From positions 1-23,254 of IMG/VR virus record IMGVR_UViG_2651869755_000006: a stretch of 23,254 nucleotides of DNA. One strand, 5' to 3'. This DNA comes from a virus (lineage: Duplodnaviria > Heunggongvirae > Uroviricota > Caudoviricetes). Positions 15,090-20,225 of the stretch are shown one piece after another; position 1 is the first letter of the stretch; the number at the start of each line of letters is the position of its first letter. The notes beneath the pieces are model-generated. The model was not told the origin of the DNA, made no database searches, and saw only the letters and a program-made list of their open reading frames with translations. Made by a program: the position numbers and the translations under genes.

Positions 15090-15095
15090 GCATGT

Positions 15096-15125
15096 AAAAA
15101 GGCCCCAACACATGTGCGTGGGGCC
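15096..15125 (-). terminator. Minus-strand terminator-like hairpin upstream of the holin gene
   Basis: Minus-strand RNA: GGCCCCA-(11-nt loop)-UGGGGCC followed by UUUUUAC. Confidence 0.35.
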
Positions 15126-15325
15126 TGAGAGTATACATGGTTTCAGTCAACTGCATGGTGCCGGGTGCCTCCCGGTGAATTCAGTACCAGCACCTGAATC
15201 CGCGATTATCCCATATACCTACTCGCTGATTGCCCCTCCGCACAGGGGGATTCACCATGCCAGTTTCTTTTAACAAACTCCCCGCAAAACAGACAACTGT
15301 CAACCGTCTGAATTGTGAGACATTT

Positions 15326-15365: not shown

Positions 15366-15442
15366 TGGCGCGTTGTACTGGATTCGAACCAGTGACCGAT
15401 TGCTTAGAAGGCAATTGCTCTGTCCGGTTGAGCTAACAACGC
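15366..15442 (-). tRNA. tRNA-Arg, anticodon UCU (reads AGA)
   Basis: Hand-folded cloverleaf: acceptor GCGTTGT/ACAACGC + G + CCA, D-arm GCTC/GAGC, anticodon stem ATTGC/GCAAT with loop CTTCTAA, T-arm ACTGG-TTCGAAT-CCAGT. Confidence 0.8.
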
Positions 15443-15455
15443 AGGGTACAGATAA

Positions 15456-15532
15456 TGGACCGCCATCGAGGACTCGACCCCCGCGCAACCAGCTTCGAAG
15501 GCTGGTGCTCTATCCTGATGAGCTAATGGCGG
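15456..15532 (-). tRNA. tRNA-Arg-like, anticodon read as UCG (CGA), with non-canonical features
   Basis: Hand-folded: acceptor CCGCCAT/ATGGCGG (C1-G72) + T73 + CCA, D-arm GCTC/GAGC, anticodon stem CCAGC/GCTGG with loop CTTCGAA, T-loop GTCGAGT (G where T54 is expected). Confidence 0.55.
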
Positions 15533-15539
15533 TATGTGA

Positions 15540-15615
15540 TGGTGGCCCTTGCTGGATTTGAACCAGCGACCTGGCGATTATGAGTCGCTCGCTCTCACCT
15601 CTGAGCTAAAGGGCC
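15540..15615 (-). tRNA. tRNA-Ile2-like, anticodon CAU (ileX/ileZ-type, probably lysidine-modified to read AUA)
   Basis: Hand-folded: GGCCCTT acceptor, anticodon loop CTCATAA, T-arm GCTGG-TTCAAAT-CCAGC, ends GGGCCACCA; close to E. coli ileX as I recall it. Confidence 0.75.
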
Positions 15616-16877: not shown

Positions 16878-17936
16878 TTATGCTTTCCACTTCAGAACAC
16901 CCGAATTTCTCGCGTGCATTAAAAAACGAATCAGCAACAACAGCTGACTGCCGTGTTTTTCTTCAAAATCTTTTACTCCGGCATGTAGTTTGTTATGGCA
17001 TTTACGGCACAACGGAATAACAAACAAATCGTCAGCCTTTGTTCCCATCCCTCCCAGTCCATGACCAATGATGTGATGCGGATCATCTGCCTGATTACCG
17101 CACGTCATGCATTTCTGCGTTTTTACCCAGCGCGTGTATACAGGCATCTCTTCCCGTTGTGGTTTCTGGCGCTGGAGATACTGAGCCGGTGACTCCGGAT
17201 CAACGGCAATGCTGACCACCGTCTTTTCCTGTGGCCGGATTTGTTGCTGGTGGGCGTGAGGCAGCGGCGCAAGATTTTTTGTGCGCTGCTTCAGTATGCT
17301 GGTGGCGGTCTGCTCTCCCGGTACGATGTCGCTTTCACGGTACATTGAGCGGATTTTTTCCACACGCAACCCCAGCGAACGACGTAATACCGCTTCCGGT
17401 AGCGCGTCCACCACCTGATTGCGGACCGCCCACCAGGATAATTCAGCCAGCGATAATTCCCGTTCCTGCGAGCCATTCATTGCATGGCGTATGACGTCAA
17501 TCATCCATGCAGACAGGTTTTGGTGAGCAAGTTGCCCGAGTGATTCGGAGGTCTGGTCGCGCAGTTGGTTGTCGCAGTGCCAGCACAACACCATTGCGCC
17601 GGTACCATAACGGTGAATGACGGTTTCACTGTGGTGATAATCGCCGTGTGGCCACTGGCAGGATTTAACATGGCGCAGTAACCAGTCAGACAATGCGCCA
17701 GCGCCACCAGCAGCACGAATCACTCGTTCGTCGCTGAAAAATGGCAGCAATGTTTTGTCTTCCACTAGCGGCTGGCGAACGGCAGGAACAACCCCGGACG
17801 GCAGATTACGCATGCTTTTCGGTTCCGGCTCCACCAGTACCCGGGTATTGTGGAATACCGGCATGGATTCACGGCCCGGCTTAACGATCACCAGCCCGAG
17901 TTCCGGTACCAGAACAGGTCGAAGTAATACCCGCAC
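16878..17936 (-). CDS. DUF968/YdfU-like protein with C-terminal HNH-like zinc-finger motif, 352 aa (GTG start)
   Basis: C-terminal CMTCGNQADDPHHIIGHGLGG...IPLCRKCHNKLH motif; position between the rem-like gene and rusA mirrors ydfU in the E. coli K-12 Qin prophage; family name from memory. Confidence 0.5.
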   Translation of the reverse strand: MRVLLRPVLVPELGLVIVKPGRESMPVFHNTRVLVEPEPKSMRNLPSGVVPAVRQPLVEDKTLLPFFSDERVIRAAGGAGALSDWLLRHVKSCQWPHGDYHHSETVIHRYGTGAMVLCWHCDNQLRDQTSESLGQLAHQNLSAWMIDVIRHAMNGSQERELSLAELSWWAVRNQVVDALPEAVLRRSLGLRVEKIRSMYRESDIVPGEQTATSILKQRTKNLAPLPHAHQQQIRPQEKTVVSIAVDPESPAQYLQRQKPQREEMPVYTRWVKTQKCMTCGNQADDPHHIIGHGLGGMGTKADDLFVIPLCRKCHNKLHAGVKDFEEKHGSQLLLLIRFLMHARNSGVLKWKA

Positions 17937-17937
17937 G

Positions 17938-18216
17938 TTACCTCCAGATGCGTTGCTGGAATGTGCGGGACGGACGCGGTGGGCGTTCGGAGTAAGGAAG
18001 CCTGACGGAGATTACCCAGTGACGATAATCGAGGCTGAGGGCTTTCTTAATCTCGTATCCGTGTCTGCGGTAGCACTGAATTAGCCACTCGGCCTGTTCT
18101 TCAGTGCATGGGGGATGCTGGAACCAGTCAGATTTGAAAGTGCGGGAACGCCGCCCGTGCCTGCTGGCAAAGACGGCAGAATCATCAGAATTGTGTAATT
18201 TGGTATCGTGCGCCAT
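17938..18216 (-). CDS. Hypothetical protein (position of rem in the Qin prophage), ~92 aa from the first ATG; ORF track extends to a TTG at 18270
   Basis: ORF ending 1 nt before the ydfU-like GTG start; no motif recognised. Confidence 0.4.
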   Translation of the reverse strand: MAHDTKLHNSDDSAVFASRHGRRSRTFKSDWFQHPPCTEEQAEWLIQCYRRHGYEIKKALSLDYRHWVISVRLPYSERPPRPSRTFQQRIWR

Positions 18217-18288
18217 CGGTTGTCTCTGCTGGCGCAGCAGGTGCCAGTTGTTCAGGCTGGCGTGCGGCAATATTGTCTCTGATTTCTG

Positions 18289-18316
18289 TTGTCGTCAACA
18301 GGCAGCGTGCTATCAT
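18289..18316 (+). promoter_or_regulatory. Candidate sigma-70 promoter for parDE
   Basis: TTGTCG (-35), 16-nt spacer, TATCAT (-10), about 35 nt upstream of the parD start. Confidence 0.35.
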
Positions 18317-18351
18317 CGAATAGTGTTCTATCCTACTCCGTGAGGTTTACC

Positions 18352-18609
18352 ATGCGTACAACCCAACAATTCAGCATTACATTAACTAACGAGATGGCTG
18401 ACATGGTGCGCGCCCGTGTGGCTTCCGGTGCCTATGCTTCAGAAAGCGAGGTCATTCGTGAAGGGCTTCGCGCACTGAATGAGCGCGATAAAGCAATCGA
18501 AGCGTGGTTAACGCATTCAGCCGCCCCCTCTCTTGATTCTATCCGCGAAAATCCAAACAACGGACGCTCCATTTCACAGGTTCGCGCCGCGATTCGATCC
18601 GGGAAGTAA
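18352..18609 (+). CDS. parD: ParD-family ribbon-helix-helix antitoxin, 85 aa
   Basis: GAGG Shine-Dalgarno 7 nt before the ATG at 18352; ...RARVASGAYASESEVIREGLRALNERDKAIEAWL... matches the ParD motif (G-Y-SASEV-R-LR-L); immediately followed by a ParE-like ORF. Confidence 0.7.
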   Translation: MRTTQQFSITLTNEMADMVRARVASGAYASESEVIREGLRALNERDKAIEAWLTHSAAPSLDSIRENPNNGRSISQVRAAIRSGK

Positions 18610-18614
18610 TCTGC

Positions 18615-18914
18615 ATGACATTTGAAGTCATCATTACCCCCGAGGCCGAACAGCAGATAATAAACCTGCACGGATATATAACGGAGAAAGCAGGAAGCGT
18701 CATTGCTGACAATTATGCCAATGCGCTTCTTGATTATCTTGATGGGTTTTCTACATTCCCACATCGGGGCAATAAACGCGATGATATTCGCCAGGGAATG
18801 CGAGTAACTCACTTCCGCCACAGAACGATTATTGCTTTTGCCGTTGATGGCAATAAAGTCTTTATCGCTGGCGTTTACCATGGAGGGCAAAGTTATGAAT
18901 CTGACTTTTTATAG
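18615..18914 (+). CDS. parE: ParE/RelE-superfamily toxin, 99 aa
   Basis: Starts 5 nt after the ParD stop; C-terminal ...RVTHFRHRTIIAFAVDGNKVFIAGVYHGGQSYESDFL resembles the ParE/RelE fold signature. Confidence 0.65.
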   Translation: MTFEVIITPEAEQQIINLHGYITEKAGSVIADNYANALLDYLDGFSTFPHRGNKRDDIRQGMRVTHFRHRTIIAFAVDGNKVFIAGVYHGGQSYESDFL

Positions 18915-18975
18915 TTTATATTTTCACTAACAAAAAACTTAAATAACCAAGAAACACTTATAAAAGGGCTTCTAA

Positions 18976-19329
18976 ATGAATAAAACAATTTGTTTTCTAT
19001 TGGTTTTTGCAATTTCAGGATGCGTCAACCCTTATAACTACAGAGAAGAACAAAATGTTATTATCTCGTTCAAAACAAATTCTCCACCACAAGAAATACA
19101 AGAATGCATTCTCAGTGAGTGGCAGCGTACACCTCTCTTAGCCACTATCACGTCTCAAAAAATTGGCAAGTATTACAGCGTATTAGCGGTTGCAGATAAT
19201 GCCGACATTTATAAGTTGGCAGATGGTTCTACTATCATTGATTTTTATTCCCTTCGAGGGGGCTTAGACCCCACCAATGGGAAAAGCAAGAGGATTCAGG
19301 GAATTAAATCATGTATTAGCACTAAATAA
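18976..19329 (+). CDS. Putative lipoprotein of unknown function in an AT-rich cargo segment, 117 aa
   Basis: MNKTICFLLVFAISGC signal peptide with lipobox Cys; gene and its 61-bp leader are visibly more AT-rich than flanking phage DNA. Confidence 0.6.
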   Translation: MNKTICFLLVFAISGCVNPYNYREEQNVIISFKTNSPPQEIQECILSEWQRTPLLATITSQKIGKYYSVLAVADNADIYKLADGSTIIDFYSLRGGLDPTNGKSKRIQGIKSCISTK

Positions 19330-19404
19330 TCATCAGTTCGAACCCAGAAACAGCCAAATAGATTTTATCTCAGGTGCGTTGAGGATGCCTGACACATCAG
19401 AGGT

Positions 19405-19426
19405 GGCGAGGGATTTCTCCCCCGCC
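19405..19426. terminator. Hairpin in the convergent gap between the lipoprotein gene and hok
   Basis: GGCGAGGG-ATTTCT-CCCCCGCC inverted repeat, 8 nt past the hok stop and 75 nt past the lipoprotein stop; no strong U-tract on either side. Confidence 0.3.
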
Positions 19427-19433
19427 TGGTCTC

Positions 19434-19589
19434 TTACTCCTCAGGTTCGTAAGCTGTGAAGACAGTGACCTCCGTCTGGCCGGTTCGGATTCGTACCTCG
19501 CAGAGGTCTTTCCTCGTTACCAGTGCCGTCACAATGACGGTAATACAGATGACGATCAGGGCGACTAACATCGCCTTTTGCTGCTTCAT
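19434..19589 (-). CDS. hok: Hok-family type I toxin, 51 aa
   Basis: MKQQKAMLVALIVICITVIVTALVTRKDLCEVRIRTGQTEVTVFTAYEPEE is near-identical to E. coli Hok/Gef family proteins as I recall them; AAGGAG Shine-Dalgarno 9 nt upstream. Confidence 0.85.
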   Translation of the reverse strand: MKQQKAMLVALIVICITVIVTALVTRKDLCEVRIRTGQTEVTVFTAYEPEE

Positions 19590-19646
19590 AGCCTGCTTCT
19601 CCTTGCCTTTCGGCGCGTAAGAGGCTAACCTAGATTTGCCGTTCAT
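19434..19646 (-). CDS. mok: Mok-like in-frame upstream reading frame overlapping hok, 70 aa
   Basis: In-frame ATG 19 codons upstream of the hok start, as in chromosomal mokC/hokC pairs. Confidence 0.5.
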   Translation of the reverse strand: MNGKSRLASYAPKGKEKQAMKQQKAMLVALIVICITVIVTALVTRKDLCEVRIRTGQTEVTVFTAYEPEE

Positions 19647-19800
19647 AGATTGAGCCTCAGATTAATGTTAAGCGTCTTGCCGGACGCGTAATGTTAACTG
19701 GGGCTTTTCTCTATCTGCCTTTTGGTGTTCATGCCTGAGACAGATAGCCTCAAGCACCCGCAGCAATTCTACTTAACTCTCCTTTTCCCGCAAACCGTTT

Positions 19801-19884
19801 TTATCCCCAGCGGCAAATCGAATACACCATCAGCGTCACCGCCATCGCAATTCCTACCGTTGTTAATGCTTCAGGCCAGGTCAT
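19801..19884 (-). CDS. Small hydrophobic peptide, 27 aa, coupled to the upstream gene
   Basis: Reads [27 protein letters not shown]; ATGA overlap with the stop of the 114-aa gene; GGAGG 11 nt upstream. Below the ORF-track size cut-off. Confidence 0.25.
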
Positions 19885-20225
19885 CGTAAAATATCCTCCA
19901 CGCTTATCAGTCCGTTCCGCTCCAGATAACTCATCGCCTTATCCGGTAATTTGCAGTCTGGCTTCGCTTTCCTCAGTTGCCAGGTTAACTGCTTTACCAG
20001 CATGGTTAACTCATCGACCAGACGCTGATATCCCACTGGTTTGTATTCATGCAATTTACCGGCTGGCTCTGCTGCCAGCGATACCAGTGCGATTTCCAGA
20101 ACAGCAATATCCATCTTATATGTGCGGATGATGTCATGGTCGATTGTACCCGGTATGCACAGTCTCTGTGCTTCAATAGTCTCCTCTGCGTGAGCTATTA
20201 ACTGCTCTCTGGTAAAAGTCGTCAT
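19881..20225 (-). CDS. Hypothetical early protein, 114 aa
   Basis: ORF with ATGA overlap to the upstream 55-aa ORF; N-terminus resembles that ORF. Confidence 0.55.

Follow-up and report, generated by a model that had tools for sequence, protein, structure and literature searches.

Toxins of the ParE family poison DNA gyrase and are neutralised by ParD antitoxins. Described pairs include ParD1/ParE1 of Caulobacter (3KXE), the ParDE proteins of Mesorhizobium (5CEG and 6X0A) and those of RK2. A different set of phage-encoded proteins comprises outer-membrane lipoproteins that face the periplasm and block phage receptors, as Llp does with FhuA and Rtp45 with LptDE (PMC12685063). In siphophages, superinfection exclusion by lipoproteins encoded beside tail-tip genes has been described for Llp and Cor, which act on FhuA, and for Rtp45, which acts on LptDE (PMC12685063, PMC9586334). 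Tail operons also carry cargo genes known as morons (Juhala 2000; Cumby 2012), and the exclusion moron gene 15 of HK97 is found in the slot between the tail chaperone and the tape measure gene (PMC3594210). Here, we analyzed a window of 23,254 nucleotides from a Caudoviricetes prophage (IMG/VR record IMGVR_UViG_2651869755_000006, positions 1 to 23,254; coordinates below are those of this window unless another locus is named), in which a parD-parE toxin-antitoxin (TA) pair is followed on the plus strand by a gene for a 117-aa predicted lipoprotein of PHROG 914, a family of unknown function.

The overall explanation that we favor, by a slight preponderance of probability, is a composite of two morons: a parDE TA module and a captured exclusion lipoprotein. 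The 1.1-kb insert at 18267–19372 would thus consist of two unrelated, independently mobile prophage cargo genes, placed at a recombination hot-spot in the nin region of a lambdoid prophage, between orf92 (which adjoins the ydfU-family gene) and hok/sok. The anatomy and modularity of the insert can be stated with high confidence. Comparisons by blastn with empty, alternative-cargo and parDE-only loci placed junctions at 18266/18267, 18913/18914, 19372/19373 and 19799/19800, dividing the region into three modules: parDE (18267–18913), the lipoprotein gene (18914–19372) and hok/sok (19373–19799). E. coli 06-00048 and the Stx phage ArgO145 matched the window only at 18269–18913; this was followed by 124 bp of unrelated sequence, and homology restarted at 19800, the hok/sok module being missing from such parDE-only loci. 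In ArgO145, parDE was located at a quite different genome position, near the integrase end. A preliminary description of this DNA had treated the insert as one unit; instead, two separately mobile modules were found to be joined exactly at the parE stop codon.

The distribution of the two modules was also very different. Counting parDE as present at ≥80% coverage, we detected it in 328 of 5,426 complete E. coli genomes, always on the chromosome, and in effectively no true plasmids. The lipoprotein module occurred in only 7 of the same 5,426 genomes, in each case directly after parDE. Thus, 321 of the 328 parDE-positive genomes lacked the lipoprotein, and all 29 lipoprotein loci outside E. coli lacked parDE, a pattern that contradicts any obligate link of the lipoprotein to the TA pair. 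The E. coli copies of the lipoprotein gene (7 genomes and 5 viral contigs) were intact, with 81–100% DNA conservation and no frameshifts.

All three plus-strand open reading frames (ORFs) were intact, and every other gene in the window was on the opposite strand. The same three coding sequences were called by PGAP in NZ_CM171611.1 (E. coli from buffalo milk), which is 99.9% identical over the region; among 44 PGAP features across the window span, all but these three were on the opposite strand, in agreement with the statement that they are the only plus-strand genes in 23 kb. The 5-nt gap between parD and parE and the 61-bp AT-rich spacer that precedes the lipoprotein gene were likewise as first described. 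The parD gene itself stood, but its feature had been started too early: position 18289 is an upstream in-frame TTG inside a promoter-like site, and the ATG of parD is at 18352. Calculated in 300-bp windows, the GC content was 0.34–0.40 over 18850–19299 versus 0.50–0.56 in the flanks, and that of the lipoprotein gene was 0.37 versus 0.49 for its flanks. These values confirm the contrast between the lipoprotein gene and the flanking phage genes and agree with the view of the insert as AT-rich foreign cargo. The possibility that the three are chance ORFs was ruled out by hidden Markov model (HMM) scores and by cross-genus conservation.

The slot that holds this cargo is used repeatedly. Phage vB_EcoS-640R1 had the same flanks with the slot between orf92 and hok empty, 56 bp taking the place of 18267–19372, and in phage vB_EcoS-689R5 (L017 1914–2306) the same slot held a different, 130-aa hypothetical ORF on the minus strand, i.e., the strand of the phage's own genes. 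The Qin prophage of K-12 has, on a single strand, the gene order relB-relE-hokD-rem-ydfU-ydfT. Qin DNA was homologous to the window up to 18233 and again from 19373, and therefore rem holds in Qin the slot of parDE and the lipoprotein gene. A recurrent cargo slot had been proposed in the preliminary description, and these three cases bear it out. However, the proposal that relBE is the Qin occupant of the same slot was ruled out by its location: relBE is found beyond hokD, in the same orientation as the phage genes. The insert had also been placed between rem/ydfU-like genes and hok, which was correct for hok on the right and for the ydfU-family gene but not for a rem-like left neighbor: the ORF at this border, orf92, gave no BLASTP alignment to K-12 Rem. 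An unannotated Qin ORF that lies between ydfU and rem matched it with 76% identity over 92 aa. This counterpart is located at L018 2810–3085 (MG1655 1644309–1644584), and the K-12 homolog is apparently unannotated or decayed. Thus, the two prophages share the backbone (ydfU/DUF968, orf92 and a hok product 94% identical to K-12 HokD) and the habit of gathering TA cargo. They differ in that the Qin slot holds rem, with relBE co-oriented with the phage operon beyond hokD, whereas the cargo in the window is opposed to the operon.

Identification of the first two genes as parD and parE is very secure. ParD scored above the curated cut-offs of PF03693 (32.1 bits, cut-off 21) and TIGR02606 (53.8 bits, cut-off 46.2), and ParE above that of PF05016 (38.3 bits, cut-off 23; residues 5–94 against profile positions 1–89). 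The corresponding PHROGs were labelled ‘antitoxin’ (phrog_6494, E = 1.7e-56) and ‘toxin’ (phrog_5232, E = 7.5e-41). Residues 6–51 of ParD aligned to solved ParD antitoxins, the top PDB match being Caulobacter ParD1 (3kxe_C, E = 3.9e-4). Since PF05016 spans the whole RelE/ParE superfamily, a ParE profile was built from 17 homologs and run against PDB. Its matches were solely ParE-type toxins (6x0a, 5ceg, 7ycs and 8c24), and RelE, YoeB, HigB and mRNA interferases gave no match at E ≤ 1. The original reading of a ParD-like antitoxin with a ParE/RelE-like toxin was thus upheld and could be narrowed to a ParE-type toxin. The two genes are co-oriented with the antitoxin first and resemble the ParDE systems mentioned above in that a ribbon-helix-helix parD lies 5 nt upstream of a parE of ~100 aa. 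However, the pair is divergent from all solved ones (best E = 6.8e-5 with the profile), is a moron in lambdoid/Stx prophages rather than a plasmid system, and has lost its usual terminator and gained an extra gene after it.

A Shine-Dalgarno sequence (GAGG) was present 6 nt upstream of the parD ATG, and a consensus scan revealed a sigma-70-like site, TTGTCG-N16-TATCAT with a TG extension, at 18289–18316. A 6-bp inverted repeat (CTGTTG-N4-CAACAG, 18286–18301) overlaps the −35 element of this site and is a plausible candidate for the ParD operator. ParD, a ribbon-helix-helix protein, would neutralise ParE and repress its own promoter at this repeat; ParE would poison DNA gyrase once ParD is depleted, which would penalise prophage loss and possibly abort some infections. 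This TA pair is already known and common: it is automatically annotated, carries PHROG toxin and antitoxin labels and occurs in 6% of complete E. coli genomes. Literature searches on prophage ParDE systems returned nothing on this specific parDE, and none of the PADLOC-DB 2.0 defence models matched ParD, ParE or the lipoprotein at E ≤ 0.1.

Outside E. coli, the lipoprotein gene had the features of an independent moron. We examined 29 non-E. coli loci with readable context, which are not phylogenetically independent; the loci were gathered with the closer alignment A1, and the sample is biased toward an Enterobacterales clade. In 28 of the 29, the gene was located in a tail/host-recognition module. 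In Rahnella-type prophages (L004–L006, L010 and L033), it was flanked by M and L; in phages HK140/mEpX2, Klebsiella ST846-OXA48phi9.1 and Pseudomonas PseuP_222, by K and I. At least 14 Pantoea-type and metagenomic viral contigs had it after J and side-fibre genes, and in Serratia fonticola it separated the tail chaperone gene from that for the tape measure. At such sites it formed an AT-rich island, with a GC content of 0.38–0.46 compared to 0.46–0.56 for its neighbors in 16 of 17 relatives examined. An extended −10-like motif, TGnTAnnnT (TGCTAACAT, TGCTATCAT, TGTTAGTAT and similar), was present 20–46 nt upstream in 27/29 loci, versus 2.8 expected from shuffles, and a GC hairpin with a T-run terminator followed the gene in 20/29. 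Possession of a separate promoter within late operons implies that the gene is expressed while the prophage is repressed, i.e., that it has a lysogenic-conversion function. As AT-rich units with promoter and terminator between tail genes, the PHROG 914 homologs resemble HK97 gp15 and other tail-operon morons, and the Serratia copies occupy the very slot of HK97 gene 15 (PMC3594210). However, HK97 gp15 is an inner-membrane protein of unrelated sequence and not a lipoprotein, and the window copy no longer has such signals of its own.

The E. coli-type loci were organized differently. All eight (the window, L001, L012 and L024–L028) had the order orf92-parD-parE-lipoprotein-hok, and none was tail-adjacent. 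The TGnTAnnnT motif was found in 0/7 and a terminator in 0/7 loci of this type, and no terminator-like site was detected anywhere in window 18000–19900. Of the moron features, the lipoprotein gene in the window retains the different base composition, whereas its own promoter and its own terminator are absent. Similarly, the parDE genes of the window have a promoter-like site but not the strong terminator (AAAGATCCCGGC...GTCGGGATCTTTTTT) that parDE-only loci have within 124 bp after parE. Since the E. coli-type copies of the lipoprotein gene lack promoter and terminator, they were probably captured into the parDE transcript, and co-transcription with parDE, from its promoter and as the third gene of its operon, is, in our judgment, the probable mode of expression. 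The spacer is poorly conserved among E. coli variants, except for the Shine-Dalgarno sequence and a TTAAAT/TAAAAT element. In the scenario that we favor, the PHROG 914 gene of other phages would be a self-contained unit (extended −10 promoter, gene, terminator) among tail/host-recognition genes; in an E. coli lineage, recombination would have joined a shortened lipoprotein moron directly to the stop codon of parE with loss of both signals, and the lipoprotein would now be made from the parDE promoter in the repressed prophage.

Two further observations concern transcription at these loci. In the parDE-only loci L002 (4815–4938) and L003 (4646–4769), the sequence after parE contained a promoter-like site (TTTACC-N16-TAGAAT with a TGG extended −10), a CCGCC...GGCGG hairpin and the terminator AAAGATCCCGGC...GTCGGGATCTTTTTT; this unit, which is absent from the window, matched no Rfam family and could be a small RNA gene beyond a mere parDE terminator. 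In the window (18914–19646), where no terminator follows the lipoprotein gene, plus-strand parDE/lipoprotein transcripts would run antisense through hok/mok (19434–19646, minus strand), and an effect of this readthrough on hok mRNA is speculative.

The lipoprotein begins with a signal peptide made up of a charged n-region (MNK), a hydrophobic core (TICFLLVFA) and a lipobox (ISG followed by C16), with Val at position +2. The lipobox pattern applied, [LVI][ASTVI][GAS]C within the first 35 residues (PROSITE PS51257-type), matched at C16, as first predicted, and in 32 of 33 family members. In the 32 members scored, position +2 was occupied by A, S, V, T, M, Q or N and never by Asp, and for this reason the Lol sorting rule predicts outer-membrane localization. 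Three Cys residues (Cys16, Cys44 and Cys113) are invariant across the family. An AlphaFold2 model (pLDDT 84.5, pTM 0.77) had a beta-alpha-beta4-alpha topology, and the location of the invariant Cys44 and Cys113 in its two helices suggests a disulfide between them. The top Foldseek match was Flpp3, an outer-membrane lipoprotein of Francisella (E = 3.8e-4, TM 0.51). Flpp3/DUF3568 and the N-terminal domain of BamC are likewise parts of small lipoproteins with a beta-alpha-beta4-alpha TBP-like/helix-grip fold. However, they share only 13–15% identity with the window protein and no sequence-level kinship, and the fold is generic and carries little functional information. Searches of BFVD gave weak, unnamed structural matches only, and the family profile matched PDB sequences in the signal peptide only.

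The family is uncharacterised but already catalogued. The window protein matched PHROG 914 over its full length (residues 1–114 against profile positions 1–118), as did 33 of 33 relatives (best E = 1.8e-42), and was 49–60% identical to proteins in Rahnella, Pantoea and Serratia. Pfam, NCBIfam and PADLOC had no match for it. Pfam also had no family for the 33 relatives, one lipid-attachment-site match aside, and lambda Bor (PF06291) matched neither the window protein nor any of the 33. The family is small, with 12 clusters in a word-indexed search and ~35 representative clusters at 50% identity in 1.84 billion proteins, and is restricted to phages, those of Escherichia, Klebsiella, Rahnella, Pantoea, Serratia, Pseudomonas and Bordetella. 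A tblastn search with the window protein against 50,697 phage genomes gave no match at 1e-3, and members in phage genomes were reached only via the more distant relatives P0021 and P0025. Literature searches, including those on HK140/mEpX2, returned nothing on this lipoprotein family. An o-spanin role was rejected: the prophage is equipped with lysis genes, and this gene is not part of their cassette.

With regard to function, we tentatively favor superinfection exclusion, a reading that falls somewhat short of an even chance and in which the lipoprotein would act from the periplasm to mask a receptor or entry factor in the outer membrane, like T5 Llp, Cor or Rtp45. It is preferred because lipoproteins beside tail-tip genes are a known exclusion solution of siphophages. 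An exclusion factor had been suggested tentatively in the preliminary description, and the tail-module location and moron anatomy of the homologs are new evidence for that guess. The window protein resembles T5 Llp, Cor of phi80/N15/HK022 and Rtp45 in being a small phage lipoprotein for which a periplasm-facing position in the outer membrane is predicted, and the PHROG 914 homologs have tail-tip and receptor-binding genes around or beside their own and are apparently expressed independently of the late operon (PMC12685063). In contrast to these systems, the window copy is not near tail genes. A more specific version, to which we assign a lower probability still, is that PHROG 914 may be an unrecognised family of exclusion lipoproteins, unrelated to Llp/Cor/Rtp45, that was rewired in a rare E. 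coli lineage into a ParD-autoregulated TA operon; if so, exclusion would be expressed together with, and controlled by, an addiction module.

Several points weigh against the exclusion role and the composite origin. The former draws on gene position and moron anatomy only. Neither sequence nor fold homology to the characterised exclusion lipoproteins Cor, Llp or Rtp45 was detected: the window protein did not match the Cor PHROG, and the profile found no Llp, Rtp45 or other PDB protein. With ~100 mature residues, it is roughly twice the size of these proteins. HK140 carries Cor besides the PHROG 914 lipoprotein, and therefore PHROG 914 is not simply the receptor-masking gene of the phage. The window gene is ~18 kb from the tail-tip genes, and the window prophage has no tail-located copy. 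As for capture, a weak promoter within the spacer is possible ~31 nt before the ATG (TTAAAT in the window, TAAAAT in the 86% variant), and the 29 loci are not all independent, so the signal counts overstate the number of separate events. Finally, ParE activity, ParD operator binding and lipoprotein localization are inferred from family knowledge.

Some of the same features would suit a lysogenic-conversion envelope factor that aids the host in the manner of Bor or Lom (serum resistance, adhesion or stress tolerance), with parDE as a mere neighbor and promoter donor. The anatomy is that of a classical moron, with a promoter active independently of the late operon, lambda lom is likewise located in the tail region, as is well established (PMC3594210), the Francisella outer-membrane lipoprotein Flpp3 has the closest solved fold, and exclusion in HK140 is already served by Cor. 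However, neither Bor nor any other Pfam family was matched, and the lipoprotein family occurs almost only in phage tail modules of many genera, including the environmental Rahnella, Pantoea and Pseudomonas, a distribution that argues against a role in host-animal virulence. We consider this explanation rather unlikely. A mainly lytic role is improbable. Here, the protein would act like T5 Llp, masking the receptor both on cells already infected and on debris left by lysis and so sparing progeny phage, or would aid tail function, and the E. coli copy would be displaced and possibly decaying. The position of the gene within late tail operons, co-oriented and sometimes only 30–60 bp from K, I or L, is compatible with this role, as are the debris-protection precedents of Llp and Rtp45 (PMC12685063) and the loss of promoter and terminator in E. 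coli. On the other hand, the conserved extended −10 motif and terminator indicate expression independent of the late operon, the E. coli copies are intact and conserved, and an exported lipoprotein cannot be a virion assembly component.

The idea of the preliminary description that ParD, ParE and the lipoprotein form an integrated three-component defence, for instance with an envelope-sensing lipoprotein and ParE as effector, appears very improbable. The three genes are indeed adjacent and co-oriented with no terminator between them, and every lipoprotein-bearing E. coli genome (7) and viral contig (5) retains their fusion. Nevertheless, the parts are separable, as their distribution demonstrates, PADLOC gave no match, and no obvious path leads from a lipoprotein in the periplasm to a ParD-ParE complex in the cytoplasm. 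The features of the insert and its borders are listed in Table 1.

Table 1. Features of the insert and its borders in the window.
Feature	Position	Strand	Evidence
DUF968/YdfU-family gene, nin-region flank, outside the insert	16878..17936	-	PF06147 E=1.5e-63; 78% identical to K-12 YdfU (tblastn); PGAP ‘DUF968 domain-containing protein’
orf92, 92-aa phage ORF, left border of cargo slot	17938..18216	-	phrog_1212 (function-unlabelled PHROG) E=6.4e-35
5' end of parDE module, promoter-like site and inverted repeat	18267..18351	+	Consensus scan; blastn boundary 18267/18269 vs L016, L017, ArgO145
parD, ribbon-helix-helix ParD-family antitoxin, 85 aa	18352..18609	+	PF03693, TIGR02606, phrog_6494; PGAP WP_001260977.1
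parE, ParE-type toxin, 99 aa	18615..18914	+	PF05016, phrog_5232
AT-rich spacer, 61 bp, start of lipoprotein module	18915..18975	+	AAGGG Shine-Dalgarno ~8 nt before ATG
PHROG 914 lipoprotein gene, 117 aa	18976..19329	+	phrog_914 E=2.9e-27
3' tail of lipoprotein module, without the intrinsic terminator of homologs	19330..19372	+	blastn; right insert junction 19372/19373
hok/sok type I toxin-antitoxin module, convergent with the insert	19373..19799	-	hok CDS 19434-19589, mok ORF to 19646

The hok/sok neighbor was identified by PF01848 (78.4 bits, E = 2.9e-22) and by the Rfam family RF01794 (sok, 111 bits at 19584–19759). Across the window, the opposite-strand genes comprise a replication region, Q, four tRNAs, and lysis, head and tail genes up to that for minor tail protein L. 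The prophage (window/L020) combines an HK97-type head module with tail genes of the lambda type. Its small terminase belongs to the P27 family, an HNH endonuclease adjoins the terminase, and the integration site is a tRNA-Ser gene next to the hya operon. In the interval that separates Q from the holin gene, at 15090–15289 (−) and 15369–15615 (−), Rfam searches detected the small RNA STnc100 (140 bits) and three tRNAs; PGAP gives four tRNAs (Ile, Lys, Thr and Gly) in the identical record. Beyond the right end of the window, the same prophage has a relB/relE pair adjoining a cI-like repressor gene (L001 13065–13546), and therefore it holds three TA modules: parDE, hok/sok and relBE.

Two additional observations were made in the tail regions of other phages with PHROG 914 genes. 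In HK140, an annotated Cor downstream of J (L045 1366–1599) and the PHROG 914 gene between K and I (L013 5001–5342) give a tail region with two different predicted envelope lipoproteins. In Pantoea-type prophages (L007 4247–4531; L043 4685–4921), a gene for a 94-aa protein with a TonB C-terminal domain adjoins the lipoprotein gene and is placed between J/DUF8377 and the side tail fibre gene; a phage TonB_C fragment beside host-recognition genes is unusual.

Taken as a whole, the locus is ordinary prophage mosaicism plus one uncharacterised protein family. What is new is the consistent tail-module, moron-type context of this family elsewhere and its apparent capture by a TA operon in a rare E. 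coli prophage lineage. As a candidate for a new protein of superinfection exclusion or lysogenic conversion, the PHROG 914 lipoprotein is well defined, and it may point to a receptor or entry factor that is as yet unidentified. The locus also likely illustrates how prophage cargo is assembled, with a moron that shed its promoter and terminator joining a TA operon as its third gene, in the slot that rem holds in Qin.

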